From: an uncultured virus (IMG/VR IMGVR_UViG_3300049489_000353) | Lineage: Duplodnaviria > Heunggongvirae > Uroviricota > Caudoviricetes | Length of the DNA stretch: 64,000 nucleotides | Virus record (IMG/VR): IMGVR_UViG_3300049489_000353 | Direction: 5' to 3' (one strand) | Part shown: positions 31,588 through 57,117 of the stretch, in pieces | Layout: each line of letters begins with the position of its first letter | Position numbering within the stretch: position 1 is the stretch's first letter | Program-made: the position numbers and the translations under genes | The notes under the pieces: model-generated | Told to the model about the DNA's origin: nothing | The model's database searches: none | The model's input: only the letters and a program-made list of their open reading frames with translations

Positions 31588-32052
31588 ATGCTGAACATTG
31601 TAACGGGCAACATTCTCTCGTCACCAGAGCAGTACATTGCCCATCAATGTAATTGTGTCAGCTATAATGCGGCAGGAATAGCTCAAGCTATTTTCACCAA
31701 GTGGAGCTACGCTGATTGTTACTCTATCCGTTGGGAAAAGGATAAGCCTGGCACCATCGAGGTCCGTGGGGACGGTAAAGAAAATAGATACATCATCAAT
31801 ATGTTTGCCCAATTCAACCCAGGCAAGCCACATAAAGACGATGATCCCGAAGATGGTTATCAAGCCAGGAAACAATATTTCGTACAGTGTATGAAGTTAA
31901 TCAAAGATTTAAAGCCACGGTCAGTTGCTTTCCCGATGGGTATAGGTTGCGGACTCGCTGGTGGATCGTGGGACTTTTATAAAAAAGTCCTTGAAAAATT
32001 TTCAAGTGACATTAATATGGTCCTTTATCAGATACCAGAAAAGAAAAAATGA
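31588..32052 (+). CDS. Macro domain (ADP-ribose) protein
   Basis: IAHQCNC, AGIA, IGCGLAGGSW. Confidence 0.85.
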   Translation: MLNIVTGNILSSPEQYIAHQCNCVSYNAAGIAQAIFTKWSYADCYSIRWEKDKPGTIEVRGDGKENRYIINMFAQFNPGKPHKDDDPEDGYQARKQYFVQCMKLIKDLKPRSVAFPMGIGCGLAGGSWDFYKKVLEKFSSDINMVLYQIPEKKK

Positions 32053-32576
32053 AATTTGAAAAAGAAACCAATAACGCAAACGCATTCGAACTGGTTTCTG
32101 CCATTGATTTGTTGATAAAAGCCAATCAATGGAACGAGATTATGCGGTACATGGCATGTACCACACCAAAAGAGTTTATCAAATTCGTTGAGGATTTTAG
32201 AGAAGATGGTGGTGTTGAAAGCATGCTTAAGCCAGAGCGAGTCATTGTGCGGTTTGAAGGCTGGGATAATGATAGCAATTTGAATATGAAAATACCAGTC
32301 ATAAAAGCGTTACGCGAAGCCTTTCAACTCGGGTTGGCTGATGCGAAGTATTTGAGTGAAACCATTCCGTGCGATGTCGCGGCATATGATCGTGAGTCTG
32401 ACATACTTAAATATGTTATTTCGAAACTTGATGTATTTGGAATAAAAATCTGTTTGATTCCAGATAGTAAGACAATTCCATGTAAGTTTCCAAATGTGAA
32501 TACGACTCTTCCGCTGGGGTGGGTGGCTCCGACACATATAAAGATGCCTCCTATAAAGTGTTATACGAGAATATAA
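32049..32576 (+). CDS. Protein containing a ribosomal L7/L12 C-terminal-like domain
   Basis: KIPVIKALREAFQLGLADAKYLSE. Confidence 0.65.
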   Translation: MKFEKETNNANAFELVSAIDLLIKANQWNEIMRYMACTTPKEFIKFVEDFREDGGVESMLKPERVIVRFEGWDNDSNLNMKIPVIKALREAFQLGLADAKYLSETIPCDVAAYDRESDILKYVISKLDVFGIKICLIPDSKTIPCKFPNVNTTLPLGWVAPTHIKMPPIKCYTRI

Positions 32577-33873: not shown

Positions 33874-34698
33874 ATGATCTACGTGATCTATCACAAAAAT
33901 TGCAATGACGGAACAGCAGCGGCATGGGCAGCATGGAAGAAATTTGGCAATGATGCCAAGTATATCGCCATGCGGTATGAAGATCCGATACCCGAAATGC
34001 CAGATTGTAGCTTCCTCTATCTTGTAGATTTTTCGCTGCCATTAGAAGTCATGCAGCAAATGTACAATGACTTGAACGGTAACATACAAGTTATCGATCA
34101 TCACAAGACGGCGCAAGCAGCCTTGCAGAGATTTCCTAACTGTGTTTTCGATATGACAAAATGCGGAGCGGTTTTGAGTTGGGAATATTTTCATCCCGGC
34201 AAGAAACTTCCCGTATTTCTGCAATATATTCAAGACTATGATATATGGACGAAGAAACTTCCATATACCAACGAAGCCGCTGCATATGTCAATAGTTATG
34301 AGCGCACACTGAATATCTTTGATCAACATGCAAAGACATTTGAGCATGCGTTCGAAAAGGTTACAACCGAAGGCGCTGGTATGTTGCGATACCATCAGCG
34401 TGATATTGATAAGATTTGCCAATCCGCTCGTCCGTACATGTGGGAGGATAGCATCAAGTGCCTGGTCGTGAATACATCTATATTCATGTCTAGTGATGTC
34501 GGTGGAGCATTGGCTGAACGCAATCCAGAAGTCAAATTCATTTGTTGCTACTGCGACACCGAAGAAGGCTTCCGCTACTACTCGCTGCGCTCACGCGGCG
34601 ATTTCGATGTGTCCATTCTTGCCGCAAAATTCGGCGGTGGAGGACATAAAAATGCCGCTGGCTTCATCATTAAAACACCGGTCAAACTATTCTTTTAA
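33874..34698 (+). CDS. DHH/DHHA1 family phosphoesterase
   Basis: YH..C.DG, IDHH, SLRS, GGGGHKNAAGF. Confidence 0.9.
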   Translation: MIYVIYHKNCNDGTAAAWAAWKKFGNDAKYIAMRYEDPIPEMPDCSFLYLVDFSLPLEVMQQMYNDLNGNIQVIDHHKTAQAALQRFPNCVFDMTKCGAVLSWEYFHPGKKLPVFLQYIQDYDIWTKKLPYTNEAAAYVNSYERTLNIFDQHAKTFEHAFEKVTTEGAGMLRYHQRDIDKICQSARPYMWEDSIKCLVVNTSIFMSSDVGGALAERNPEVKFICCYCDTEEGFRYYSLRSRGDFDVSILAAKFGGGGHKNAAGFIIKTPVKLFF

Positions 34699-35358
34699 GG
34701 AATACCATGATTACGATTTCTGAAAAAACCAGAGAAGCAAAAGCTATTGATATCGTTGACGATCGAGTATCAAAAAATCCGTTCATTGGTGAAATCAAGC
34801 TGACGCCGGTGTGGCATGGTTGGCAAAATGGTCGCATGTGGATCTGGTTTCCGTTGACTATGGAATCAGAAATCTTTGGAAAGACGCTTCCACATGAATG
34901 GGTCAAAGTATACCCTCGCGTCATACAATGGACTGATGGGAAGTATTATGCATTCAGAGGGACGCACAGCGCCCTACCAGAGTATCGTATCAAGGGTGAT
35001 AACACGGTTTACTACCGTGAAATTCTTGTTGAGGAAGGCGAGAAGCTGGAGTATTAACCATTATGAGCAAACGCATCAAAGAGTATGTAAAAAATGTCGA
35101 GGTCGAGAATGATCGACTTGACACAGAACGCGAAAAAGCTCTTGATGAAAATGTTAAATTAAAAAGGGAATTAGAGCAACTCAAAAAGATAAATGCTCAA
35201 TACGAGGGCTGTTTATCGCTGATTATGGAGAAATTTGGCTGGCGGGACGCGGAAATCGGCAAGACCATTACCAAGATGCTGAATGAAGCTGCCAAAAATC
35301 TTTTAAAAAAGTAAGAATTCATTATAAATACATGTAGACACAGGAATTAAAAAACTTC

Positions 35359-35385
35359 TTGTACGCCAGAAAAATCTGATAGAAT
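35359..35385 (+). promoter_or_regulatory. Promoter of tRNA array 1 leader
   Basis: TTGTAC-N15-TAGAAT; TATAAATA also at 35323. Confidence 0.55.
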
Positions 35386-35404
35386 AACCTTCAAGGAAAC
35401 ACAA

Positions 35405-35455
35405 ATGAGACGCACATATATAGCATCATGCCAAAAAGGAGAAGGTACAGCCTAG
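35405..35455 (+). CDS. Leader peptide 1, MRRTYIASCQKGEGTA
   Basis: AAGGA SD, 16 codons plus TAG, directly followed by alternative hairpins. Confidence 0.75.
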   Translation: MRRTYIASCQKGEGTA

Positions 35456-35484
35456 AGGGGTTGTAAAGCGTCACACGCTTCCAC

Positions 35485-35516
35485 AACCCTCCAGCCCCCT
35501 GGAGGGTTTTTCTTTT
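35485..35516 (+). terminator. Attenuator terminator, array 1
   Basis: AACCCTCCAG-cccc-CTGGAGGGTT then TTTCTTTT; 5' arm can alternatively pair with GGGGTTGT (35457-35464). Confidence 0.85.
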
Positions 35517-35764
35517 GAAAATCTTAAACATGGTAGCAGACAGTAGATAGAAATATCTTTGCTTTTAAAAAAAGCGTGCTATCATAGTTAAACTTCACAA
35601 ATCTATAGCGTAGAACGAAATCGCAGCGCGACTCACAAGGAACCTGTCTAGCGAACGGCAGGAGGCGCAAGCCTAAGCATTGTCCTCGTATGATGCAAAA
35701 TGAGTAGCGACACTAGTTAGCTCTAGTGTAAAAGCGGTAGTGGACACCTTCGGGTGTCCGTTAT

Positions 35765-35849
35765 GGGATAGTCGCATAGCGGCAATTGCACGACGCTGTA
35801 AACGTCACGCCTCACGGCTGCGTAGGTTCGAGTCCTACCTATCCCACCA
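35765..35849 (+). tRNA. tRNA-Tyr(GTA)
   Basis: Cloverleaf, ctGTAaa loop, variable arm, ACCA. Confidence 0.9.
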
Positions 35850-35933
35850 ATGAGTTTTTCTTTCAGCGGTCACTAGACGAAAGTTTATACCGTGAGTTTC
35901 CCTTCCTCATCGTCAAAGAAACGCAAACTTTAT

Positions 35934-36027
35934 GCCGTATGCTCCTAATGGCTGTCTGTAAAACAGTTGTGCTTCAAAATATATTAGGCGGCTGCACAGT
36001 TGGGTTCAACTCCCTCATACGACACCA
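35934..36027 (+). ncRNA. D-armless tRNA-like RNA, GTA anticodon
   Basis: Acceptor, ctGTAaa arm, T-arm, ACCA; CCTAAT/ATTAGG pairing in place of the D arm. Confidence 0.6.
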
Positions 36028-36029
36028 AT

Positions 36030-36104
36030 GCTGTTCTAGCTCAGTGGTAGAGCAACTATTTTGTAAATAGTAGGTCGCGTGTTCGATTCACGCTAACAGC
36101 ACCA
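36030..36104 (+). tRNA. tRNA-Thr(TGT)
   Basis: Canonical cloverleaf. Confidence 0.9.
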
Positions 36105-36358
36105 AGTATCGATGGTAATCTCACCTGAATTGCGGTTAGGGTATAGCTCTTCGTGCTGTAAAATCAGGGAAAGCAGAAGGATTCGTCCCTTATGTGACTT
36201 GCAAGGATCATAAGTATGCTTCCAGCAACCGACCAAAGCAGTAGATAAATAGTCGCCCACGATTCGAAGGTGGGAAGTGTGAGTCCAAAGATACCACCAT
36301 AACGCCTCCAAAGTTTGCAACTTCTTTGGTGCGGGTCGGAACCTCAAAAGTTGCGTAT

Positions 36359-36434
36359 GGGGGCGCATGTTCCGTACTGGCGAGTCGCACTTGCAATGCA
36401 ACTGTGGTGGGTGGAACTCCCATCGCTTCCACCA
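36359..36434 (+). tRNA. Atypical tRNA-Ala(TGC)
   Basis: G3:U70, ctTGCaa loop, elongated anticodon stem, ACCA. Confidence 0.6.
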
Positions 36435-36529
36435 AAAGGTTTTCGGACAACAGTAATGTTGCCGCCGTTATCCTCGAACAAAAACGGTTGAGTGGACTAG
36501 GGCGACCATTCATAAAACAAGTCCACCAT

Positions 36530-36603
36530 GGGCTGATAATTTAGCGGTAGAATGACTGCCTTGCACGCAGTATACTGGAGTTCGATTCTCCATCGGTCCA
36601 CCA
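36530..36603 (+). tRNA. tRNA-Ala(TGC)
   Basis: Cloverleaf, G3:U70. Confidence 0.9.
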
Positions 36604-36770
36604 TTACGCGCTCGACCGCAACGAGCTAGTGAGTTGCTAACATGAAATGAAATGGAGTAGCCCTCCATAATGCAACGACACCAGATTCCGCTAGTATTTC
36701 TGGTAATAGCCAAAAATCATGGTCGCGTGCCTTCGGGTGTATGCGTGTGGTTGGCGGTGACTAGCTTTAT

Positions 36771-36867
36771 GGTACTGTTAGTGTAACGGCAGCACGGTAA
36801 GTCCGAGACATGTGCAAGCATGGAGTAGGCAACCAAATGACTAGAGTGGTCCGACTCCACAAGTACC
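36771..36867 (+). ncRNA. tRNA-like RNA with a branched insert replacing the anticodon arm
   Basis: GGTACT/AGTACC acceptor, D arm, T arm, no CCA. Confidence 0.5.
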
Positions 36868-36946
36868 TTGACAACGGCTGAATAAGTGATAGGATATAAA
36901 AACACCAGCAATGGCGATGACAAATCTATAACGTAGAACGATTCAT

Positions 36947-37038
36947 GCAACAGTGCGCGGAGTCCGGTCGAACGCCCCTGCCTTTTAAGCAGATTCATTA
37001 ATTTGACACCGTAGGTTCAAATCCTACCTGTTGCACCA
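36947..37038 (+). tRNA. tRNA-Lys(TTT), long variable arm
   Basis: ctTTTaa loop, extra arm, ACCA. Confidence 0.8.
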
Positions 37039-37041
37039 CAT

Positions 37042-37115
37042 GGGGGACAAGCATTAAAGTGATGCAATCGCCTTTTAAGCGATGGAACACGGACCATTAC
37101 CGTGGTCCCCTACCA
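37042..37115 (+). tRNA. tRNA-Lys(TTT)
   Basis: Cloverleaf, divergent T loop. Confidence 0.75.
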
Positions 37116-37132
37116 AGTAAAAGTTGAGTTGC

Positions 37133-37208
37133 GGGCGTATAGCTCAACGGTTAGAGCAGCCGACTCATAATCGGTTGGTTCTAGGTTCAAATCCTAGTAT
37201 GCCCACCA
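37133..37208 (+). tRNA. tRNA-CAT (Ile2 or Met)
   Basis: Canonical cloverleaf, ctCATaa. Confidence 0.85.
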
Positions 37209-37219
37209 GAATATTTCAT

Positions 37220-37313
37220 ACGAGTGTCGCCTAACGGTTAAGGCACCCGGCTTATACCCGGTTTACGATCTGATAAATCGAAGATGTGGGTTCGACTCCC
37301 TCCACTCGCACCA
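37220..37313 (+). tRNA. tRNA-Ile(TAT), long variable arm
   Basis: ctTATac loop; variable arm CGAT-ctGATaa-ATCG. Confidence 0.8.
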
Positions 37314-37316
37314 AAT

Positions 37317-37392
37317 GCACCCATCGTCTAACGGCTCAGGATAGGAGACTTTCATTCTCTTGATCGGGGTTCAAATCCCCGTGGGTGTACCA
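37317..37392 (+). tRNA. tRNA-Glu(TTC)
   Basis: Cloverleaf. Confidence 0.9.
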
Positions 37393-37486
37393 GTAAGATC
37401 ACTTTAGGCATATCCCCCGGAGGCGGGCTTGGTGATCAATGTTACCATCAACTATTTAAAGCGTAGTCGGTAACAATGCCTTTCAT

Positions 37487-37561
37487 GCTCTATTAGAACA
37501 GTGGCTAGTTCATTCGGCTTTCAACCGAAAGAAGAGGGGTCGGAACCCTCATAGAGTACCA
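37487..37561 (+). tRNA. tRNA-Glu(TTC)
   Basis: Cloverleaf, divergent T loop. Confidence 0.8.
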
Positions 37562-37754
37562 TTGCGGGAATCCCGTCCACGAAGTGTCTCCTTATATAGT
37601 ATGATGAATGCCATTCGTCATGCCAGCGTTACGGAGAGATACTTAAAGGTTCGACTCCTTTCATCGGCACCAATGCCGATGTATTCCAGCCGGTGCTGGA
37701 TTCGTAGACTAAAGAGGTCGCCCTATAAACGGTTAGGGAAGAACGGGTCCGCAA
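37562..37754 (+). ncRNA. Family-2 terminal-stem RNA enclosing a permuted tRNA domain
   Basis: TTGCGG-GAAT-CCCGT...ACGGG-T-CCGCAA; inside: T arm, CATCGGC-accaat-GCCGATG, D-like arm. Confidence 0.6.
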
Positions 37755-37833
37755 ACCATCGTGCGCTAGATAGGTGAATGTGGCACAGAGGGATAACCTA
37801 GCCAACCCTGTCTAGTTCGCAACCTTTTCTCAT

Positions 37834-37909
37834 AGGGGTATCGTCCAACGGTTTAAGACAGGAGACTTTGGATCTCTTTATCTAGGTTCGAATCCTAGTA
37901 CCCCTACCA
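37834..37909 (+). tRNA. tRNA-Gln(TTG)
   Basis: Cloverleaf. Confidence 0.9.
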
Positions 37910-37915
37910 AATTAC

Positions 37916-37990
37916 TGGCTCATGTATGTAACGGCAGCATGAAACGCTTTGAACGTTTTCGTCCGGGTTCGAATCCTGGTGAGCCAACCA
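37916..37990 (+). tRNA. tRNA-Gln(TTG)
   Basis: Cloverleaf. Confidence 0.9.
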
Positions 37991-38063
37991 GATGACGAGT
38001 CGCTCTCGTCTGATTTCGGAGTATCACGGGTAAACCGAATAAGAATAACAAATACCTGTCCAT

Positions 38064-38142
38064 AGCAGATTGGACTGGAGATAGATCCAGCGTAGTCTCA
38101 TAAGCTACTTACAGGTTGGTGCGATCCCAACATCTGCAACCA
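38064..38142 (+). tRNA. tRNA-Met(CAT), initiator-like
   Basis: ctCATaa, mismatched 1:72 pair. Confidence 0.75.
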
Positions 38143-38147
38143 TACAA

Positions 38148-38230
38148 TGCGGAGTAGAGAAACAGCCATCTCACTAGCCTCATAAGCTAGAAAAAGCAAC
38201 TAAGTGGTGCGACTCCCGCCTCCGCAACCA
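38148..38230 (+). tRNA. tRNA-Met(CAT), initiator-like
   Basis: ctCATaa, TGCGGAG/CTCCGCA acceptor. Confidence 0.7.
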
Positions 38231-38233
38231 ATT

Positions 38234-38695
38234 AAGACTAGGTTCAGCAAACCCCTATTAGCCCGAAAGGGCTGCCAGTGGCTTTCGAATTTTCCCACAT
38301 TAAAAAGAAAGTAGAAAACTAGTCTGTTTATTTTCCAAGGATATTTACAGCAAACCAAAACAATTTGGTTCGAATCCAAGGTTCCAGCAATGGGACACGC
38401 ACAATCGGTGTGCAAAAATATCCTGTTTTTCCTCAAGGTTGCATTCAGCATTCATAAATCCAAACAGCATGATTGGGTGCGATTCCCAACTTTCGTCCAT
38501 GACGAATGTAGTGTAACAGCAGCACAGCCGTCTCAAAAAAAACGCAACCTGTTTTTTCTTTAAGGATACTTCCAGCAATTATATGCAATGTAAATTCGCC
38601 GCCCTTCGGGGCTTCCGTGGTTCGAATCCCGGTCCACCCACCATGGGTGCGATGGCGGAAAGGCAGACGCAGCGAACGCAACAAACAGTATCCTG
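38234..38695 (+). ncRNA. Four tandem family-1 RNAs (38234-38326, 38337-38425, 38435-38551, 38562-38695); the last three hold permuted T-acceptor-D domains (YrlA-like)
   Basis: Shared AAG(G)-stem-CAGCA...stem-CTGTTT ends with covarying stems. Confidence 0.7.
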
Positions 38696-38704
38696 TTTTT
38701 TCAT

Positions 38705-38779
38705 GCCCGGTTCATCTAACTGGAAGGATTTCTCGCTTCTAACGAGAACATTTAGGTTCGAATCCTAAGCTGGGTGCCA
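38705..38779 (+). tRNA. tRNA-Arg(TCT)
   Basis: tctcg-ctTCTaa-cgaga. Confidence 0.88.
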
Positions 38780-38812
38780 TTGACATTTAATATAATAATG
38801 TATAATATATGT

Positions 38813-39250
38813 ATGCCAAAATGTAAAAAATGTAAGTTAATATTAGATGATAGTTGTTTTTCCACTAACGACTACAATGGTAAATATCGCACTAGATGTA
38901 AAAACTGTCGCAAATTATATAATAAAATATGGTATGAAAAAAATAAAGTAAAACAAAAGAAGAGAGCTAGAGTAAATGCTTTAAAATACAAAAACGAAGC
39001 GAGAGAGTTCGCTAAACACATTTACGCTAAAGGTTGCTCATTATGTGGAGAAAAATGTAAAGAATGTTTGGATTTCCACCATTTAGATGTCTCTAAAAAG
39101 GAATATAATGCAAGTGAAGGATTGAATGGATTTATTTCGGTAGAGACGTTTAAAAAAGAAATAAAAAAATGTATATTGGTATGTGCCAACTGTCATAGAA
39201 AAATACATGCTGGTATTATATCTTGCTCACATATCCCCTCACTTTCCTAA
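38813..39250 (+). CDS. HNH endonuclease
   Basis: LDFHH...CILVCANCHRKIH; promoter TTGACA-N15-TATAAT at 38780. Confidence 0.85.
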   Translation: MPKCKKCKLILDDSCFSTNDYNGKYRTRCKNCRKLYNKIWYEKNKVKQKKRARVNALKYKNEAREFAKHIYAKGCSLCGEKCKECLDFHHLDVSKKEYNASEGLNGFISVETFKKEIKKCILVCANCHRKIHAGIISCSHIPSLS

Positions 39251-39304
39251 AGTGACGAAAGGGTAACTGGATGCATGTAGGTTCAACTCCTACTGTGAGC
39301 GCCA
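39225..39304 (+). ncRNA. D-armless tRNA-like RNA, CCT (Arg) anticodon
   Basis: GCTCACA/TGTGAGC-GCCA, tcact-ttCCTaa-agtga, T arm. Confidence 0.6.
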
Positions 39305-39309
39305 TTCAT

Positions 39310-39386
39310 GCCCTTGTAGCTCATTCGGATAGAGCGTCGGTTTTCTAAACCGAATGTAGTAGGTTCGATTCCTACCAGGGGTGCCA
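39310..39386 (+). tRNA. tRNA-Arg(TCT)
   Basis: tcggt-ttTCTaa-accga. Confidence 0.88.
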
Positions 39387-39391
39387 TTCAT

Positions 39392-39467
39392 GCGGGTTTA
39401 GCTCAGTGTAGAGCGCCTGGGCGCAAGCCTTGGAGGTCGGGCGGTTCAACTCCCCCAACCCGCACCA
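39392..39467 (+). ncRNA. tRNA-like RNA with a GCAA tetraloop instead of an anticodon loop
   Basis: Intact acceptor, D and T arms and ACCA; GGC-GCAA-GCC. Confidence 0.65.
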
Positions 39468-39480
39468 TTAAGGAGAAGAT

Positions 39481-39804
39481 ATGAAACGTAGTCGAGCATA
39501 TGTTCGTGAACAGAGAAAAAGAGTCATTAAGAATCGTAAGAAACTCGTTCGTGATTCCAAATTACCCGATGGAAATCGTGTCGATGGAGAATATGCCAAG
39601 CGTCATCCTTTCGATTGTGGTAAGACCGATTGCATGCTGTGTCATGGGCACAAGAAAAACAAAGCATGTGGCAGCAAATGGAAAGATGAGCGTGGTGAGC
39701 TTGAAGAAATTATCAAAAAAGAAATGCGTGAAGAACTTCGTAATACAGTAGAAGAAACTGGTTGTCCACCGACGATTTATGATGAACTCCACGATAATAT
39801 ATGA
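39481..39804 (+). CDS. Hypothetical basic protein
   Basis: AAGGAG SD; C-x4-C-x2-C. Confidence 0.6.
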   Translation: MKRSRAYVREQRKRVIKNRKKLVRDSKLPDGNRVDGEYAKRHPFDCGKTDCMLCHGHKKNKACGSKWKDERGELEEIIKKEMREELRNTVEETGCPPTIYDELHDNI

Positions 39805-40140
39805 TTACGAAATCTAACAATACAAGGAATCTTCACATGACTTTATCCGTTCACGATCATATCCTTATCGCAGTTGCTCGTAAGCCGAGAACCTCTGCAA
39901 AAATCGTTAAAATCGTATCAAAAGCCACATCCAAGCCGCGCAGGATTATATGGCGCACCATTATTAAGATGATGGAGGAAGAAAAAATCAGATATCGTGA
40001 TGACGGTGCTGATTATACTGGTGGGGCTGAAAAATTACGGAAGGCGCTGAGTTGCTTATCTCACGGATACGATAAACGAGCAAACGAATTGCTTGCGGAT
40101 ATTCTGAGCCAGCATTGATTGAATTAAACTGCTAATGCAT

Positions 40141-40215
40141 TCCCGGGTAGCTCAGTGGTAGAGCAGTTGACTGTTAATCAATTGGTCGCTGGTTCGAATC
40201 CAGCCTTGGGAGCCA
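40141..40215 (+). tRNA. tRNA-Asn(GTT)
   Basis: Canonical cloverleaf. Confidence 0.92.
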
Positions 40216-40312
40216 TCAAGAATATCAGCGTTTACGGTGCGAGGGACGCACGCTGGTATAAACAGAACAGATGACAACAAATATCTATCGTCTCGCGCAC
40301 GATAGATCATAC

Positions 40313-40388
40313 GCGGGTGTAACTCAATTGGCAGAGTGGCAGCTTTCCAAGCTGCATGTTGTGGGTTCAACTCCCTCCACCCGCTCCA
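40313..40388 (+). tRNA. tRNA-Gly(TCC)
   Basis: Cloverleaf, U73. Confidence 0.9.
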
Positions 40389-40536
40389 CTGATCGGCAAT
40401 CTTGACAGACGTTCGCTTATAACGAATCCGCTGTAGTAGTAAACAACACGATGTAAGAGTTGGCAATAAAAATTATATATTAACCCAAAACTCAAAGTCC
40501 ATGAGACTCTTACATAGATTCAAGTCCGATCATCAT

Positions 40537-40611
40537 GTGTCTTTGGTGCTAATGGTAACACAACACGCTTCCAACGTGTGGTCGCTGGTTCGATTCCAGT
40601 AAGACACTCCA
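40537..40611 (+). tRNA. tRNA-Gly(TCC)
   Basis: Cloverleaf, U73. Confidence 0.9.
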
Positions 40612-40740
40612 CGATATACGCGCACGACTGATTCGTGCTATGCACTTGGTACTGACATGACTGCGGGCGTAATATGACCAAGTTGAGTCCGACCGCAGAC
40701 TGCTAGCGCAGCAGACAGAAGGTGAAAGTCCTTCGTTTTT

Positions 40741-40815
40741 GGGCGCGTAACTCAACGGCAGAGTGCTTGCTTTACATGCAAGAAGTAGTAGGATCGACAC
40801 CTACCTCGCCCACCA
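40741..40815 (+). tRNA. tRNA-Val(TAC)
   Basis: Cloverleaf. Confidence 0.85.
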
Positions 40816-40818
40816 CTT

Positions 40819-40875
40819 AAGGATGCCTACTGCAATCAAAAATATTTTAGCAAAAAATAAAAAATGTGCATCCTG
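40819..40875 (+). ncRNA. Family-1 RNA, short form without tRNA domain
   Basis: AAGGATGC-ctactgcaa...GCATCCTG. Confidence 0.6.
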
Positions 40876-40880
40876 TTTAT

Positions 40881-40987
40881 GGTGACTAGTGTAGCGGAAT
40901 GGGGCACCATTTCGTTGCTGGTTACGCAGAGGACTACTGAGGCATCATTAGCTTCCTTCGTTGGTTCGAATCCAACAGTCACCACCA
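40881..40987 (+). ncRNA. tRNA-like RNA with expanded core
   Basis: GGTGACT/AGTCACC-ACCA, perfect T arm, no clear anticodon arm. Confidence 0.55.
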
Positions 40988-41125
40988 GAGTTCGTTTTCG
41001 GGAATTGTATATAGCCATCGGTTGCGAGGCTGCTACCACCACAAGGGAACAGATGATGTATATGGTCTGTTCGCACAGTAACATGATTGGGGTCTATACA
41101 TGAAAGAAAACGAATTCACCACTTT

Positions 41126-41178
41126 AAGGATGCTTCCAGCAATTAAATTTTTTATTGAAAAAAACAAACAGCATCCTG
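41126..41178 (+). ncRNA. Family-1 RNA, short form
   Basis: AAGGATGCT-tccagcaa...AGCATCCTG. Confidence 0.6.
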
Positions 41179-41183
41179 TTTAT

Positions 41184-41258
41184 GAGCATGGAGTAGAATG
41201 GTTTTTACGTTTCCCCTACACGGAAAAATAGGAGGTTCGATTCCTCACTTGCTCACCA
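41184..41258 (+). tRNA. tRNA-Val(TAC)
   Basis: tttcc-ccTACac-ggaaa. Confidence 0.75.
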
Positions 41259-41393
41259 CTGTTATCTGATGCGAAAGTTCTCGTTGCCTGACCAGCATTC
41301 ATTAGAGAACACTCAGCGTGCAGAGTAGAAACGCTCCGTAGGTCACGGTTGGACTTGATCTGTAAAAAGCGCACGCCAGATAACTTTTTCTTT

Positions 41394-41450
41394 AAGGCTA
41401 CTTCCAGCAATTTATATTCTTTCCATTAATAAGAAAAAAACAGTAGCCTG
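41394..41450 (+). ncRNA. Family-1 RNA, short form
   Basis: AAGGCTACT-tccagcaa...AGTAGCCTG. Confidence 0.6.
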
Positions 41451-41567
41451 TTTATTTTGGTGTTACTGGAGCGTTCTTGACTGTTCCATGGAACAAGTCG
41501 GCTCGTCAGAACCCTATGACAAATCGGGATAGACCGATTGACAGGCGTGGAATTAGACACGCATCAT

Positions 41568-41644
41568 GCGGGTATCGTACACCGGATTTAGTATGACACA
41601 TTGCCAATGTGTAGAAGAGGGTTCAACTCCCTCTACCCGCACCA
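41568..41644 (+). tRNA. tRNA-Gly(GCC)
   Basis: Cloverleaf. Confidence 0.85.
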
Positions 41645-41657
41645 GAAAAGATGTACG

Positions 41658-41717
41658 ATTGTAGCTGCCCGAGCAAGGGGTGGTGATATTGTAGCTACCC
41701 GAGCAAGGGGTAGTGAT
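41658..41717 (+). repeat. Two-copy 30-bp tandem hairpin repeat
   Basis: attgtagct(g/a)cccgagcaaggggt(g/a)gtgat twice. Confidence 0.8.
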
Positions 41718-42042
41718 GCACCATCCTGTGGGCGATGCCATCGCCAGGTTAAAAGCCACACGATTCCCACATTGGATAGCATAAACAATGCGCTCGCTGC
41801 CGCGATGAACAGATACCGAGCGAAAGGGTCTATCATCGTGTCTTGCAGAAGAGAGATTACGGTCCACTCGATGGTAATCCGTACCAAGTTGTCCGAAACC
41901 AAAAGTTTCGGGAGGTCAAGGCAGCACATGGAAAGCGGTGGACAAAACCAATCACGGAGCATATGGAATACCGTAAGTTAGTGTACTTAAAGAACACTCA
42001 AATCCGCGTTCAGGGTCGCAAGTCCTTTACATCTTTTCTCAT

Positions 42043-42130
42043 GTGCATATGGTCGAGCGGTCGAAGGCAGCGGTTTGCAAAACCGCTTGGGGAAACCCAC
42101 GCGCATGTTCGAATCATGCTATGCACTCCA
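42043..42130 (+). tRNA. tRNA-Cys(GCA), long variable arm
   Basis: ttGCAaa, U73, TGGG-gaaa-CCCA arm. Confidence 0.85.
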
Positions 42131-42135
42131 TTCAT

Positions 42136-42220
42136 GACTCACGTTACTTTAAACCTGGGAAACCTGGGGCTGGTCCGCAAAATCAGCGTATTAGTGGTGC
42201 GATTCCACCGTGAGTTTCCA
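42136..42220 (+). tRNA. Atypical tRNA-Cys(GCA)
   Basis: 6-bp anticodon stem, U73-CCA, aberrant D region. Confidence 0.55.
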
Positions 42221-42233
42221 TATAAATATTAAT

Positions 42234-42470
42234 ATGAGATTCGAAGATAAGATTCCTCATATTGATAAAGTAGCGAATTTCATCGTCGGATTTACTTTGG
42301 CTGCCATGTTGGTTGGTGTGGTCGGATATGGATTCACACTCGCATCAATCGTCACCATAGCAGCTTTCAAGGAAATTTGGTGGGATCGCAATTACGATAC
42401 GGCAAATGTCGATTGGTGGGACTTTGTAGCACTTATGAGTGGCGCAGCAATAGCTGCAATATTTTTCTAA
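42234..42470 (+). CDS. Small membrane protein
   Basis: Hydrophobic segments; TATAAATA upstream. Confidence 0.6.
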   Translation: MRFEDKIPHIDKVANFIVGFTLAAMLVGVVGYGFTLASIVTIAAFKEIWWDRNYDTANVDWWDFVALMSGAAIAAIFF

Positions 42471-42471
42471 T

Positions 42472-42556
42472 GCCCGAGTGGCGTAACGGCAGCCGCGACA
42501 GTTTCAAAAACTGTTTCCTTAACGGAGTGGAGGTTCGATTCCTCTCTCGGGTACCA
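42472..42556 (+). tRNA. tRNA-Leu(CAA)
   Basis: Class II cloverleaf. Confidence 0.9.
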
Positions 42557-42560
42557 GTAT

Positions 42561-42925
42561 GGGGATGAACCGGCTTCGACGCGAAATCGGATCTATACCT
42601 TGCAAGCCGTAGAGCATAGGCTACGAAAAAAATATGTAAAAAAATAAACGATGATCACATCGATTACACTGGCGTCGAGAACGCCGGATTCGCTCTCGCC
42701 CTCGCGGCGTAAGCACAGGACTTCCAAGAACCACGATTGGAATGCACCTGTAATATAGTGGTTGCTGTTCAGTAGGCTGGTGAGTAACTGAATTTAAGAT
42801 AACACACTACGGGTTGGATACCGTTCACCAACTACCCTGTCTGATGGGGAACAGATCGGAACAAGCTTGTAGACAGATTAGTGAATATCTTGCGGACCAG
42901 GGTTCGACTCCCTGCATCTCCACCA
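42561..42925 (+). ncRNA. ssrA: tmRNA; tag reading frame DDHIDYTGVENAGFALALAA* at 42650-42712
   Basis: 5' GGGGATG...TTCGAC, 3' T arm and CATCTCCACCA, G3:U70, ATAAAC before resume codon, tag ending LAA. Confidence 0.92.
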
Positions 42926-42958
42926 TTGACATTTTTAAGAGATGCGTATAATACGCAT

Positions 42959-43273
42959 ATGAAAACGTTCGAGTTCAATTTCATCGATTCAAAAGTTCCA
43001 CAAGATATTGTGGAAACATTGATGGGTCCATTTGAGGAAGATGATGGGGAAATCATTCCGTTGAATCAAGAGTTTTCGACCATGGCACACATCATGGCGC
43101 GGGCGGGTTTCTTCCGGTCAGTTGGTGAGGCGAGGAAAAACGGCTGGAATAAGCCGATTCCAAGCGGATTTTCAAAATTAGTTGTTGGTAAAGGTGATAG
43201 GATGAAAGTTATTTTCATATTAGCGGATTCACCAATATGGCATAAAGATATGATAGATGATAACAAATTGTGA
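42959..43273 (+). CDS. S4-like RNA-binding domain protein
   Basis: AGFFRSVGEARKNGW...VGKG; promoter at 42926. Confidence 0.55.
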   Translation: MKTFEFNFIDSKVPQDIVETLMGPFEEDDGEIIPLNQEFSTMAHIMARAGFFRSVGEARKNGWNKPIPSGFSKLVVGKGDRMKVIFILADSPIWHKDMIDDNKL

Positions 43274-43315
43274 TATACTAGAAGAGGTTGAAAAGTTATA
43301 GCGTAGAACAATTAT

Positions 43316-43390
43316 CTGCCCTTGGGATAGTGGCTTGTTCCCTAGCTTTGGGAGCTAGTGACGCATGTTCGATTCATGCAGGGCAGACCA
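43316..43390 (+). tRNA. tRNA-Pro(TGG)
   Basis: Cloverleaf. Confidence 0.88.
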
Positions 43391-43441
43391 AAAGGATTTG
43401 GAATTGACTTCCAAATCAAGTATAAATAATAGTGGTGTTAT

Positions 43442-44020
43442 ATGAGTAAGATTAATAAAGAAAAATTAGTAGAGATTTTTAAAAAGTGTTATTCGTATAA
43501 CGATGTGTGTTTAAAATATTTCGGATATTGTAATAGTAAGAAGCTTTCTAATATGCGAAATTTTGCTTTTAATAATGCAATTGATACCACTCATTTTGAT
43601 GCAAAAAAGTATACGACCAAGTATGAAATAGTAGAAAAAATATGTCCAGTATGTGGTGACAAATTTAATACAAAAAGGGGACATAAGAAAGAAAAAATAA
43701 CATGTTCTTATGGATGCTCAAATACATATTTTAGAAGCGGTAAAGATAATGGAGGTTATAAAGAACCCGATGAATTATCTGGAAAAGCAAAATATGTAAG
43801 AATATGTTTCGAACATCACAAAAAAGAATGCATTATATGTGGTGAGAAAAATGTTGTGTCTGTTCATCACTTTGATAACAACCATTATAATGATGAACCG
43901 AAAAATTTAGTTCCAATGTGTCCAACGCACCATCAGTATATGCACAGTAGATTTAAGCATCTTATAGAAGATAAGGTCAAAGAATATATTGAAAAATGGA
44001 AAGTTGGCAGAGCGGTCTAA
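43442..44020 (+). CDS. HNH endonuclease
   Basis: CIICG...VHHFD.NH.N..PKNL..MCPTHH. Confidence 0.85.
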   Translation: MSKINKEKLVEIFKKCYSYNDVCLKYFGYCNSKKLSNMRNFAFNNAIDTTHFDAKKYTTKYEIVEKICPVCGDKFNTKRGHKKEKITCSYGCSNTYFRSGKDNGGYKEPDELSGKAKYVRICFEHHKKECIICGEKNVVSVHHFDNNHYNDEPKNLVPMCPTHHQYMHSRFKHLIEDKVKEYIEKWKVGRAV

Positions 44021-44087
44021 TGCAGCAAGTTACTAACTTGAAGTGCCTTAAATGGCACCGGGGGTTCGAATCCCTCACTTTCCGCCA
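43998..44087 (+). tRNA. tRNA-Ser(ACT), A34 anticodon
   Basis: Ser-type body with G73 and long arm; caag-ttACTaa-cttg. Confidence 0.8.
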
Positions 44088-44098
44088 AGTGGATTTAT

Positions 44099-44189
44099 GG
44101 TGAGTTGGCAGAGTTGGACTATAGCACTGGTTTTGAAAACCAGAGAGGGTGAAAATCCTCCGAAGGTTCGAATCCTTCACTCACCGCCA
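44099..44189 (+). tRNA. tRNA-Ser(TGA)
   Basis: Class II cloverleaf. Confidence 0.9.
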
Positions 44190-44253
44190 CAAGAGGAATG
44201 AAACGTCCTCGCCCCTTTCAAGCCTCTTAACAATGCTCAAACTGAAAGGTCAT

Positions 44254-44327
44254 GTCTGTGTAACTCAATGGTAGAGTGGCTCGTTGCCAACGAGCATACG
44301 CGGGTTCGATTCCCACCACGGACTCCA
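44254..44327 (+). tRNA. tRNA-Gly(GCC)
   Basis: Cloverleaf, U73. Confidence 0.88.
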
Positions 44328-44614
44328 AATGTCGGTTATCACACTACAAAGGGTTTTCATTACAGAGTTATGTTATTTGTAATGAACGATCACCAGCGTA
44401 TAGTTTAAACAGAACACTTTAGAACAACATGGTTGTGGCTGTGTGCTAGGGTGCGCTCACTTCGAGAGAAGAGTAAATGTCTGTAACGGACAAACTAACG
44501 GTCTTCGCCGCATTCCGAAAAATCCCTTAGATAGAGACAAAATAAACAGCACAGTCTCCATTTTAAGGCGCTACAATTCATGCTAAAGAAGAGTGTGCCC
44601 GACAGCTTTATCAT

Positions 44615-44688
44615 GCCTCCGTAGCTCAATATAGAGCGAGCGATTCTAAACCGCTAGGTTGTGGGTTAAAGTCCCACCGAGGGCACCA
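44615..44688 (+). tRNA. Amber suppressor tRNA (CTA)
   Basis: agcga-ttCTAaa-ccgct, ACCA. Confidence 0.75.
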
Positions 44689-44689
44689 T

Positions 44690-44917
44690 TCGGGAATCCT
44701 ACGAAGAGGGTTGATGAGTTATGCGGAGGGCAGACCTTATCCATACTCCGCTACGATAATTTCACTCAAGCCCAACATATGAGGCTGTTGGGGTCCGCAA
44801 GGATAACCTACTTGTAGTTTCAAACAAAACAGCAAGAGATTGAATTGATCTATTGAGCCTCAATTCAACTTATAACGAGCAATTAGCAAGTTATATCTCT
44901 TGAAGATGTAGGTCCGA
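44690..44917 (+). ncRNA. Family-2 terminal-stem RNA, long form
   Basis: TCGG-GAAT-CCTAC...GTAGG-T-CCGA with several internal hairpins. Confidence 0.5.
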
Positions 44918-44925
44918 TTCATTTT

Positions 44926-45002
44926 GCATCCGTAGCTTTCCGGCGAAAGCGCCCGCCTCTAAAACGGGGTCAAGATGGGATCGACACCCATCGGATGCGC
45001 CA
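44926..45002 (+). tRNA. Amber suppressor tRNA (CTA)
   Basis: cccgc-ctCTAaa-acggg, perfect acceptor, GCCA. Confidence 0.75.
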
Positions 45003-45006
45003 GAAC

Positions 45007-45139
45007 GGTGGAGTGGCGAAAAGATACCTTAACGGGTAACAACCAGCACCACATGCTGCTTGTAGTAAACGCACCGCCACATCGGCGGCGGATCCTAGCT
45101 AGATCCAAACTGTAGGTTCAAGTCCTACCTCCACCACCA
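45007..45139 (+). ncRNA. Leu-like tRNA derivative with D-loop insertion and 5-nt anticodon loop
   Basis: GGTGGAG/CTCCACC-ACCA, ccgcc-acatc-ggcgg, long arm, T arm. Confidence 0.55.
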
Positions 45140-45173
45140 TCACAACGCAATAACCAAAGAAAGGACCAGACCC

Positions 45174-45260
45174 ATGCGTTAGCACGAATACGGGTAGAAC
45201 ATTCGTGGACCTCCTTGAGTTGATTGAGACGAAGTTTTCAATCAATCAACCTAACAAGGA
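45174..45260 (+). promoter_or_regulatory. Amber-interrupted leader ORF (MR*HEYG*NIRGPP*) with SD-sequestering hairpin
   Basis: AAAGGA SD; in-frame TAG at 45180 and 45195; TCCTTG/CAAGGA and GTTGATTGA/TCAATCAAC pairing. Confidence 0.65.
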
Positions 45261-45268
45261 ATAAACCC

Positions 45269-45655
45269 ATGAATAAGACCCAACATAAACTCGCAATGGA
45301 ATTTTTCCGTAGCGAAATCCAAATTCTCGCCAAGAGAATTTTCCACAATAAACAGGCGCTTCGCCACAACCAACGAATCGTCTCAAAGGGACTTGACGAG
45401 CCTACCAAGGAATACGACAAGACCGGTGAGAAATACTGGTGGTGTCCAGAGCAGTCCATTGTCAATGACAAGTGGATGATCACTGGACTTCACATAGTCT
45501 ACGGAGAGTTGCGCGGAAAGCCGCATTTAACAGAGGAAAAGAAAAAGAATTATGTTTCACTCATTGAAACAATTCGTAAGAGAATGGATGAGTACATCGC
45601 GTCGAAAGAAGCTGCTCTCGTATCCAACGGAGCCTCCTGCGCCGGAAGTGTATAG
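45269..45655 (+). CDS. Hypothetical protein upstream of the Pth2-like gene
   Basis: AAGGA SD at 45256, ATG at 45269. Confidence 0.7.
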   Translation: MNKTQHKLAMEFFRSEIQILAKRIFHNKQALRHNQRIVSKGLDEPTKEYDKTGEKYWWCPEQSIVNDKWMITGLHIVYGELRGKPHLTEEKKKNYVSLIETIRKRMDEYIASKEAALVSNGASCAGSV

Positions 45656-45659
45656 AGCC

Positions 45660-45989
45660 ATGCTTAAGATGTTCATCCTTATCAGACGCGACATTCTGCC
45701 ACTCGCACACTGTGCAGTACAGAGTTCGCACGCGGCTGCTGAATTCATGGCTCAACATGGTCAGAAGCCATACGTCATCGATTGGGTGAACAACCACAAG
45801 ACGATGATTCTTCTGTCAGCTACGGAATCGGAAATTGCGAGTATCAAGGCACTGTATGATCGTATGGGCTTGTCCTACACGACCTTCATAGAGCCTGATA
45901 TGTCTAATGCAGAAACGGCGACAGCCTTTGGACCAATCAGCAATGATGTCTCGAAGGCGATCTTTGGTCACTTGTCGCTGTTGAAGTAA
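45660..45989 (+). CDS. Peptidyl-tRNA hydrolase, Pth2-like
   Basis: KMFILIRRDI...AVQSSHAAAEF...W...FIEPD...TATAFGP...LSLL. Confidence 0.8.
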   Translation: MLKMFILIRRDILPLAHCAVQSSHAAAEFMAQHGQKPYVIDWVNNHKTMILLSATESEIASIKALYDRMGLSYTTFIEPDMSNAETATAFGPISNDVSKAIFGHLSLLK

Positions 45990-46021
45990 ACAAGTCCCAC
46001 CCAGCAATGGGTGGGCAGTAT

Positions 46022-46096
46022 GCCCGCATCGTACAGTGGTAGATACAACTGTTTTGTACTCAGTAGACGGTGGTTCGATTCCATCTGTGGGCACCA
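46022..46096 (+). tRNA. tRNA-Thr(TGT)
   Basis: Cloverleaf. Confidence 0.88.
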
Positions 46097-46228
46097 GATG
46101 CAAGATGAAAGAGAAATGGATAGTGTTTTGCAGATATTCAACGCCTTACGGCGCTGAAATGGCTTCGGAGTACCAGTGAGCCGGTGAATCACGGGGACTG
46201 TTCTTAATTCGTTCTACGCTATGGGTTT

Positions 46229-46256
46229 AACCCGCTCTTGATTGGGCGGGTTTTTT
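46229..46256 (+). terminator. Intrinsic terminator at the end of array 1
   Basis: AACCCGCTC-ttgatt-GGGCGGGTT then TTTT. Confidence 0.85.
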
Positions 46257-55920: not shown

Positions 55921-55937
55921 CGAATTAAAAAATATTG

Positions 55938-55997
55938 TTGACTCGTAAAATTCTATGGTATACTAAAACCCAGATAGACGAAGATGCTCTTTAAAAA
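55938..55997 (+). promoter_or_regulatory. Promoter with boxA-like element upstream of array 2
   Basis: TTGACT-N15-TATACT; TGCTCTTTAAAAA at 55985. Confidence 0.65.
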
Positions 55998-57112: not shown

Positions 57113-57117
57113 AAATT

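Follow-up and report, generated by a model that had tools for sequence, protein, structure and literature searches.

In the genome of an uncultured large phage (IMG/VR record IMGVR_UViG_3300049489_000353), of which we analysed a stretch of 64,000 nucleotides (the window), two large arrays of tRNA genes are each headed by a short leader open reading frame (ORF) and a terminator-like hairpin. Most codons of each leader are cognate to the tRNAs of its own array, and they come as many different codons instead of a run of one single codon. Our work suggests that leaders 1 and 2 are probably ribosome-mediated transcription attenuators which would give each array feedback on its own decoding supply. 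As judged in silico, this idea is well supported: the anatomy of the leaders, the codon statistics, the predicted alternative RNA structures, the homologous modules found elsewhere and the conservation in a related strain all point in this direction.

The leaders and their parts

Leader 1 has the layout of an attenuator: A short ORF with a start codon and a ribosome-binding site (RBS) lies close to a promoter-like site, and a terminator is located between the leader and the array. The parts of the two modules are listed here (nt, nucleotides; 5' UTR, 5' untranslated region).

35359-35385, + strand: promoter-like site of leader 1 (TTGTAC, 15-nt spacer, TGa-TAGAAT; extended -10 form), read by eye
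35383-35404, + strand: 5' UTR of leader 1 with the motif AATAACCTTCA and the RBS AAGGA (35393-35397)
35405-35455, + strand: leader ORF 1, 16 sense codons and TAG (MRRTYIASCQKGEGTA)
35446-35453 with 35457-35464, + strand: hairpin A of leader 1, a weak pairing (-9.4 kcal/mol)
35457-35464, + strand: antiterminator 5' strand GGGGTTGT, beginning 2 nt past the leader 1 stop codon
35466-35480, + strand: hairpin B of leader 1 (AAGCGT/ACGCTT), small and enclosed by the antiterminator helix
35483-35490, + strand: antiterminator 3' strand ACAACCCT, overlapping the terminator 5' arm (35486-35494)
35485-35516, + strand: intrinsic terminator of leader 1, a 10-pair stem (35485-35508) and then a U-tract
35559-35585, + strand: second promoter-like site (TTGCTT, 15 nt, TGc-TATCAT; extended -10), 3' of the leader 1 terminator
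35765-46096, + strand: tRNA array 1, mostly U34 anticodons plus Tyr, Cys and Gly
46229-46252, + strand: strong terminator closing array 1, from the terminator scan
55938-55964, + strand: promoter-like site upstream of leader 2 (TTGACT, 15 nt, TGg-TATACT)
56057-56063, + strand: second -10-like sequence near leader 2 (TATAAAT), adjoining the shared 5' UTR motif
56099-56227, + strand: leader ORF 2, 42 sense codons and TAG, preceding array 2
56217-56223, + strand: leader 2 antiterminator 5' strand GTCCAGG in the final ORF codons, pairing with CCTGGAC at 56259-56265
56255-56292, + strand: leader 2 terminator, an 11-pair stem (56255-56283) and a U-tract, starting 27 nt after leader 2
56396-63716, + strand: tRNA array 2, mostly G34/C34 anticodons

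The ORF of leader 1 reads ATG AGA CGC ACA TAT ATA GCA TCA TGC CAA AAA GGA GAA GGT ACA GCC TAG. A first-pass annotation of this DNA had already described it in this form, and the span of 35359-35516 which it assigned to the attenuator reaches from the promoter-like site through the U-tract. The promoter-like site of leader 1 is outside the list of our consensus scan, which requires a spacer of 16-18 nt. The motif AATAACCTTCA is present in exact copies at 35383 and 56061 (+ strand) and is common to the 5' UTRs of both leaders. AAGGA sits 7 nt upstream of the ATG of leader 1, and this is the form of RBS usual in the phage: Of 58 phage ORFs, 31 are preceded by a sequence resembling the Shine-Dalgarno (SD) motif (AAGG, AGGA or GGAG), typically at an equivalent position. 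The terminator of leader 1 is the top-ranked + strand terminator-like site in the region 34500-47000, and that of leader 2 is the strongest of its own region on this strand. Neither at 35359-35516 nor at 55925-56300 did cmscan against Rfam report a T-box or a member of another cis-regulatory family.

Leader codons mirror the tRNAs of the own array

The tRNA genes were called with ARAGORN at default settings and with Rfam at the gathering score (strict inventory), and a relaxed ARAGORN threshold added weaker candidates; ARAGORN with introns at a low threshold was set aside as too noisy. ARAGORN identified 61 tRNA genes in two + strand blocks, arrays 1 and 2. The strict inventory of array 1 comprises the anticodons GTA, TGT, TGC, CCT, CAT, TAT, TTC, TTG, TCT, CAA, GTT, TCC, TAC, GCC, GCA, TGG, ACT, TGA and CTA. 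U34 anticodons account for 11 of 20 species in array 1 versus 3 of 29 in array 2. Moreover, Cys, Gly and Tyr are served by array 1 only, and Asp, Phe, His and Trp by array 2 only; together, the two arrays decode all but about 0.5% of the phage codon usage (~99.5%).

For the comparison of leaders and arrays, 58 + strand ORFs outside the arrays (10,380 codons) served as the codon usage reference, and the 15 post-start codons of leader 1 and the 41 of leader 2 were used. The first-pass annotation had counted 14 of the 16 sense codons of leader 1 as cognate to array 1, with CGC and GCC unmatched, and this count holds if tRNA-Lys(TTT) is admitted at the relaxed threshold. After the start codon, array 1 reads 13 of 15 codons (usage fraction 0.45, p=1.1e-3, binomial versus phage usage; 12/15 with the strict inventory), and array 2 reads 2 of 15 (0.63-0.67 expected, p<=1.1e-4). 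For leader 2 the picture is reversed: array 2 reads 40 of 41 codons (p=1.8e-6; 35/41 with the strict inventory, p=1.5e-3), and array 1 reads 11. If only codons read by one of the arrays are considered, leader 1 has 13 own-only and 2 other-only codons and leader 2 has 30 and 1, respectively (Fisher test, p=1.4e-8; 3.8e-7 if U34 also reads G).

A match no better than random given codon usage, which had been named as one of the results that would speak against the sensor, is contradicted by these figures and by the behaviour of ordinary genes: Among in-frame windows of the 58 phage genes, the own-minus-other score of leader 1 was reached by 0 of 9,568 windows of 15 codons and that of leader 2 by 1 of 8,060. 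Stop-free windows in all six frames reached it in 10 of 48,686 cases for leader 1 and in 105 of 22,743 for leader 2. The partition extends to synonymous codons: With the peptide held fixed, the own-array codon is used at 9 of 11 positions in leader 1 (4.15 expected, p=2.5e-3) and at 20 of 20 in leader 2 (12.4 expected, p=2.7e-5); with U wobble allowed, the numbers are 6/8 and 11/11 (p about 0.02). It is visible in the amino acids as well, as leader 1 contains four residues of the kind served by array 1 only (Cys, Gly, Gly, Tyr) and no Asp, Phe, His or Trp, and leader 2 contains Asp, Phe, His and Trp once each, lacks Cys and Tyr, and has a single Gly, at its last codon. In the third position, 10 of 15 codons of leader 1 end in A and 29 of 41 codons of leader 2 (71%) in C or G, as compared to 26% A and 42% C plus G in the phage genes.

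The leaders are also broad. Leader 1 addresses 12 of 19 anticodon species of array 1 (5.5 expected, p=1.5e-4; p=0.014 conditional on the number of matches), and leader 2 addresses 24 of 29 species of array 2 (16 expected; p=0.011 conditional on the number of matches). The mismatched codons are CGC (codon 3) and GCC (the last codon) in leader 1 and GGC (the last codon) in leader 2; the mismatched last codons fall where, in the model outlined below, a stalled ribosome would already cover the antiterminator.

Alternative RNA structures and the proposed mechanism

The earlier proposal that a strand just behind the stop codon can pair into the terminator 5' arm is borne out by the folding predictions. 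GGGGTTGT is complementary to ACAACCCT, in the RNA GGGGUUGU to ACAACCCU, and the helix encloses hairpin B. The predicted energies are -17.7 kcal/mol for the antiterminator with hairpin B, -16.9 kcal/mol for the terminator and -9.4 kcal/mol for hairpin A. In leader 2, the pairing partners are GUCCAGG, within the final codons, and CCUGGAC, within the terminator arm, and in both leaders the antiterminator helix and the terminator are predicted to be mutually exclusive. For the full leader 1 transcript, the predicted fold consists of hairpins A and B and the terminator (z=-3.4), and the antiterminator is part of the minimum free energy structure of the transcript that ends before the terminator 3' arm. 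A stable 1:2 hairpin as in the four-segment trp-type arrangement is absent (hairpin A at -9.4 versus the antiterminator at -17.7 kcal/mol); since the antiterminator is far more stable than hairpin A, nascent RNA on which no ribosome translates is predicted to adopt the antiterminator rather than to terminate.

The ribosome was simulated as a masked footprint of 28 nt at each A-site position, and pairing was computed for nascent RNA without the terminator 3' arm. For leader 1, the pairing of the terminator 5' arm is 0.64-0.80 as long as no ribosome is present or the A site is at one of codons 1-13; the value drops to 0.49 for codon 14 and to 0.22-0.24 for codon 15 and the stop codon. For leader 2, it is 0.65-0.66 through codon 35 and 0.15-0.38 thereafter. 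In 10 of 11 leaders, including homologues described below, the 5' arm remains sequestered up to the point at which the A site arrives at the last 6-10 codons; the leader of the viral contig G001 shows a weak masking effect (0.63 to 0.51), and for two leaders (L155 and L044) a switch is predicted at equilibrium as well. With shuffled upstream RNA, the mean pairing of the 5' arm is 0.48-0.63, and all 11 real leaders are above their own shuffle mean. The antiterminator duplex energy is better than that of 97% of shuffles in 11 of 13 leaders (L105 at 0.22); for the duplex alone, the comparison with shuffles gives p=0.02 in leader 2.

We propose the following sequence of events. RNA polymerase would start at the promoter-like site and transcribe the 16-codon leader 1. 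As long as GGGGUUGU is uncovered, it would pair with ACAACCCU and sequester the terminator 5' arm, and the polymerase would continue into the array; since the antiterminator forms first, read-through would be the default state. A ribosome that has reached the last codons or the stop codon when the terminator 3' arm emerges would cover GGGGUUGU, so that the terminator could form and transcription would stop at about 35516. Wherever decoding is slow within the sensing part (roughly codons 2-13 of leader 1 and 2-35 of leader 2), the ribosome would be delayed and the array kept on. Because each leader draws its sensing codons from the set that its own array reads, with about one occurrence of each, slow decoding of any of them may turn that array up. 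The result would be a negative feedback on the supply of the tRNA set, for example during starvation, decay or cleavage of host tRNAs, or early infection.

Two of the earlier claims are retained in this model with limits. The idea that a ribosome at the stop codon masks the antiterminator agrees with the masking computed for nascent RNA (0.22-0.24); in the equilibrium calculations the terminator wins at every ribosome position, and control would have to be kinetic. The statement that the loss of any listed tRNA releases the array was too broad, since a stall at the last two to three codons would itself mask the antiterminator; it may apply to the earlier codons. A link to anticodon nucleases is a conjecture.

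Related strains and homologous modules

The DNA sequencing runs which contain the sequence are freshwater and freshwater-sediment metagenomes, and no RNA run is listed among those that carry it. The search for close cultured phages was negative: with both leader regions as queries, blastn on 50,697 phage records returned tRNA-level matches or none, and the RNA ligase of the window is at most 30% identical to any phage record. We have compared the leader 1 region (35250-35850) with contigs from four other runs. A contig of a diverged strain has 47 differences and 5 gaps over 560 nt, with about 9% divergence in the flanks. Of the 47 differences, 13 are not listed and cannot be placed; none of those listed falls into 35335-35490, and from 35491 on there are differences every few bases. 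The inner terminator stem has changed from CCAG/CTGG to TGGC/GCCA with pairing retained by compensation, and the outer ACCCT of the terminator, which also pairs in the antiterminator, is unchanged. Two further runs span leader 1 without any change, and one contig of low depth (2.4) carries an in-frame deletion of 3 nt at 35437 by which the GGA codon is lost.

Beyond these strains, the 332-kb viral contig G001 encodes a protein with 46% identity to a 334-amino-acid protein of the window (54916-55920), and a 49-codon leader ending in TAG is located upstream of its main tRNA array. This leader shares the terminator and the downstream sequence with leader 2, and its peptide is unrelated. The antiterminator strand and the terminator arm co-vary, being CCCCAGG/CCTGGGG in G001 and GTCCAGG/CCTGGAC in leader 2. 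The protein-anchored search yielded G001 alone from the 334-amino-acid neighbour and nothing from the 274-amino-acid neighbour; in G001, the homologue is not adjacent to the array. Pattern scans of viral contigs with the leader 2 terminator junction, the leader 1 antiterminator/terminator and the 5' UTR motif gave G001 or chance matches only, and these searches detected no leader 1 homologue beyond the near-identical strains.

A terminator pattern scan of metagenome contigs resulted in 110 stretches, and 80 loci were examined. Nine of them combine a consensus promoter, a leader of 32-51 codons, the shared terminator and a tRNA array; the other 71 were set aside, as they carry the same hairpin after protein genes. 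Viral contigs add three leaders: L155 (G002), L271 and L272 (G003). The distance from the stop codon to the terminator arm is 19-30 nt in 13 of 13 leaders, the bases flanking the conserved terminator arm co-vary with the antiterminator strand, and the leader ORFs remain open while their peptides diverge among the relatives. The comparative check suggested by the first-pass annotation gave a divided answer: homologous or analogous modules do head arrays elsewhere, but in those phages the mirror between codons and tRNAs is faint or missing.

In G002 and G003, a leader was looked for at the second arrays, and none was seen. Upstream of the second array of G002 (L273, reverse strand, C1 ~96.6-96.8 kb), there are three tandem consensus promoters (TTGACA-N17-TATAAT) without leader ORF or terminator. 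A hairpin of the form AACCCTGG....AAAAA.TCCAGGGTT with a T-tract follows the stop codon of a protein gene ending in ...FTNL* in more than 100 freshwater phage contigs (L040-L119 and L150-L229), and in a subset of these contigs it also serves as a terminator behind tRNA leaders.

Points against the model and alternative explanations

Several observations weigh against the attenuator model or limit its reach. (i) The codon mirror does not generalise to the modules of other phages. In G001, it amounts to 29-32 of 48 codons (p=0.003-0.01), but five Asp, three Gln and two Thr codons are unread by any G001 tRNA. In G003, 20 of 31 codons match (0.56 expected, p 0.24), or 25 of 31 with wobble (0.62 expected, p=0.02), and in G002 28 of 48 (0.71 expected), or 35 of 48 with wobble, both at or below expectation. 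(ii) At equilibrium, the terminator is favoured at every ribosome position in leaders 1 and 2 (termination probability 0.83-1.00), and control would thus need kinetic trapping. The sequestration of the 5' arm is only modestly above that of shuffles, which reach it in 14 of 100 cases for leader 1 and in 7 of 100 for leader 2, and the antiterminator duplex alone gives p=0.083 for leader 1. (iii) Other promoters may feed array 1. The first-pass annotation rightly pointed to the promoter-like site downstream of the terminator; this site (35559-35585) could possibly bypass the attenuator and, with a G>A exchange in the -35 region and both the TG and the -10 hexamer intact in the diverged strain, it cannot be dismissed. 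Within array 1, promoter-like sequences with 10 of 12 matches are found at 36868, 38780 and 41538, each with a perfect TTGACA -35 region, so that the attenuator may control part of the output only. (iv) Some of the parts are less certain than others. Leader 2 has an ATG but no SD sequence, and array 2 possibly continues past the end of the window. tRNA-Lys(TTT) of array 1 (37042-37115) has a good cloverleaf and an atypical T-loop; it appears at the relaxed ARAGORN threshold only and is missing from the default ARAGORN run and from Rfam at E<=1. Likewise, Ser-GCT (56396) and Ser-CGA (60671) of array 2 are relaxed-threshold detections, and so is Pro-GGG, which contains an intron. (v) Translation of the leaders, the timing contest of ribosome with polymerase, termination at the hairpins and the trigger in the cell are parts of the model that we infer.

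The failure of the mirror to generalise would be expected if the leader were a general sensor of translation capacity, in which the progress of the ribosome relative to the polymerase signals any slowdown, be it by starvation, ribosome-targeting toxins or host shut-off, with the codon mirror being secondary. The leader codons of G002 and G003 match their own arrays no better than genomic usage predicts, and many G001 leader codons lack any phage tRNA. The leaders of the freshwater group contain 17-20 of the 20 amino acids; this diversity is only modestly above the mean of 15-17 in protein windows of equal length (individual p 0.008-0.43), and the idea of the leaders as "pangrams" was set aside with modest support only. 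Since the two leaders of the window are partitioned by array in their codons, in synonymous choice and in their amino acids, none of which a generic timer needs, we regard a general sensor as unlikely here. An involvement of the TAG codon is somewhat harder still to reconcile with the data. Array 1 indeed contains two tRNA genes with a CTA anticodon (amber suppressor-type; 44615-44688 and 44926-45002, + strand), as had been noted before. TAG ends both leaders and the G001 leader, versus 5 of 58 phage ORFs, and the frame of leader 1 continues without a stop exactly across the terminator, up to a TGA at 35516-35518; the attenuator mechanism leaves both facts unexplained, and the frame of leader 2 is open for 105 more codons. 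If abundant CUA tRNAs caused read-through of TAG, the hairpin would be prevented and the arrays would be locked in the ON state late, as a positive feedback or a code-switch sensor. The match between TAG and the CUA tRNAs does not fit a stall-to-ON logic, because a missing suppressor simply means stop. Such a switch appears quite unlikely: 7 of 13 leaders end in TAA (L044, L087, L105, L112, L155, L271 and L272), L097 has a stop six codons past its TAG, no CUA tRNA was found in G001, and the codon partition is left unexplained. Moreover, TAG recoding is not evident in the genes of the window, where the check for merged ORFs gave nothing convincing.

Two further explanations dispense with regulation of the array by the leader. 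In one of them, the hairpin is an ordinary terminator of the preceding operon (gene 35063-35314), the promoter-like site at 35559 drives the array, and the 16-codon ORF is accidental. Short ORFs are common, a promoter-like site does lie downstream of the terminator, and a terminator of this shape is located behind ordinary protein genes in 71 of the 80 metagenome loci. A chance ORF would hardly show a codon partition that is seen in 0 of 9,568 and 1 of 8,060 gene windows, nor would it be accompanied by a complementary second leader before array 2, by open frames and a conserved stop-to-terminator spacing across diverged relatives, and by a diverged strain that is unchanged at 35335-35490 among the differences listed; we therefore consider this explanation very improbable. 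The same is true for the idea that the actual product is the terminated RNA of some 125 nt, or else the peptide of 16 residues, i. e. a small RNA or micropeptide that does not control the array. The conservation at the nucleotide level in the related strain, among the differences listed, would suit such a product, and there is a precedent in the trpL of Sinorhizobium with a trans-acting attenuator RNA and a leader peptide, as described in excerpts of PMC6614838 and PMC7298713. Yet the peptide is not conserved between the homologous leaders (leader 2 versus G001), no Rfam family matches, and the agreement with the anticodons of the array would have no explanation.

Content of the arrays and genomic neighbourhood

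In addition to tRNAs, the arrays encode other functions related to translation and tRNA maturation.

42561-42925, + strand: tmRNA inside array 1 (117 bits; tag peptide DDHIDYTGVENAGFALALAA)
45552-45989, + strand: PTH2 peptidyl-tRNA hydrolase gene inside array 1
62167-62490, + strand: full-length RNase P RNA of bacterial class A in array 2, directly 3' of tRNA-Met (190 bits, E 3e-60)

The tmRNA and the peptidyl-tRNA hydrolase, both acting in ribosome rescue, would fit an operon that is induced by stalling, and with the RNase P RNA the phage brings its own ribozyme for the 5' processing of tRNAs. It is tempting to speculate that a nearly complete tRNA set has been split into two operons of different wobble classes (U34 plus Tyr, Cys and Gly; G34/C34) and that these form, with their codon-mirror leaders, two independent closed-loop controllers of decoding: depletion of any of a dozen or more tRNA species, for instance by anticodon nucleases, would co-induce the replacements together with tmRNA and peptidyl-tRNA hydrolase or RNase P RNA, reading of TAG by the own suppressors would be a late override, and the arrangement would be widespread in uncultured large phages. 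We offer this extended scenario tentatively, as a possibility that may well turn out to be wrong.

Several other elements were seen in the arrays. The abiF RNA motif usually accompanies abortive-infection genes. A match to it (Rfam RF03085; 50.3 bits, gathering score 37) is located at 44214-44250 (+ strand) between tRNA-Ser(TGA) and tRNA-Gly(GCC), and in a phage tRNA array the motif may be a decoy. A hairpin element of about 60 nt (TTTAAGG..., an A-rich loop, ...CCTGTTTAT) is present in three copies between tRNAs (40815-40885, 41122-41186 and 41390-41458, + strand), of which the third has compensatory stem changes (GGATGC/GCATCC versus GGCTAC/GTAGCC); for the three copies, Rfam yields sub-threshold matches to an unrelated family only. 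By eye, a second Tyr-like tRNA with a GTA anticodon loop, a long variable arm and a CCA end can be recognised at 35935-36028 (+ strand), which is called neither by ARAGORN nor by Rfam, and several more gaps of the arrays may contain tRNAs of atypical form. Array 2 contains a weak candidate with a TCA anticodon and a tRNA with a 6-nt anticodon loop (sites 60163-60239 and 60413-60484). Matches to YrlA (Y RNA-like) inside the tRNA arrays are below the gathering score of 69, with 22 bits in the window (40106-40198) and 47.6 bits in the G001 array (L027 9461-9588).

Outside the arrays, the window, with a G+C content of about 42%, encodes the following proteins in addition to a DNA ligase.

1698-2246: Acb1 (anti-CBASS, E 3e-14)
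32049-32576: protein with a ribosomal L7/L12 C-terminal domain
48545-49618: RNA ligase with a PHA02142 OB domain
49618-50346: RlaP RNA-repair nucleotidyltransferase

The genes for Acb1, the RNA ligase, RlaP and the L7/L12-domain protein make up a neighbourhood of counter-defence and RNA repair.

Comparison with known systems

In textbooks, tRNA genes are controlled at the level of the promoter, by growth rate and the stringent response. If our model is correct, it would add tRNA genes as a new class of attenuation targets and a multi-codon test strip as a new sensing design: Phages would gauge the decoding capacity of the cell codon by codon and replenish only the tRNA set that is short. This could explain how very large tRNA arrays are affordable and how phages respond to tRNA-cleaving defences, and the leader design could serve as a compact programmable sensor of tRNA availability. 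The window is an especially clean case, because complementary leaders before complementary arrays provide a built-in swap control. In agreement with the impression of the first-pass annotation that such a sensor is undescribed, our full-text literature searches gave no description of leader-peptide attenuation of tRNA genes. Phage tRNAs have been discussed as a counter-defence against tRNA-targeting systems in excerpts of PMC10264068 and PMC11555353, with constitutive or strong promoters, and a term search of these texts found no mention of attenuation or leaders. That function provides a motive for a tRNA supply on demand in our phage, too, and the genes for RNA ligase, RlaP and Acb1 are present in the same window.

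The best-known attenuators are those of amino-acid operons in enterobacteria, such as trpL, hisL and pheL and the multivalent leaders of thrL and ilvGMEDA. The phage leaders share with them the short promoter-proximal ORF, the mutually exclusive antiterminator and terminator between which the position of the ribosome is predicted to choose, and the link of the regulatory codons to what the operon supplies (for the general logic, see excerpts of PMC1183508). They differ, however, in that the genes under control encode tRNAs, along with tmRNA and RNase P RNA, and not biosynthetic enzymes, that about 12-24 different codons occur once or twice each in place of a single-codon run, and that the system is encoded by a phage in two complementary copies. 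Moreover, the anti-antiterminator is weak (-9.4 versus -17.7 kcal/mol). In the trp-type, a stable 1:2 hairpin forces termination when there is no translation; here, the ribosome-free default is predicted to be read-through rather than super-attenuation.

T-box riboswitches bind uncharged tRNA directly via a specifier codon and control genes for aminoacyl-tRNA synthetases and amino-acid metabolism without translation. The phage leaders would resemble them in a transcription antitermination that answers tRNA status, but an ORF, the translation of which is predicted, replaces the direct binding of tRNA, and no T-box was matched. A close likeness is found in the antibiotic-responsive leaders of msrD, vmlR, bmrCD, mef/mel and the erm type, as far as they are described in excerpts of PMC10314930, PMC9226507, PMC4191407 and PMC4335068. 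In these leaders, a stalled ribosome blocks the terminator, a finished leader permits termination, and a 1:2 hairpin is unnecessary, as we predict for the phage leaders. There, however, the stall is brought about by the drug together with a specific nascent peptide, whereas in the phage it would result from the slow decoding of codons that are cognate to the tRNAs of the array.

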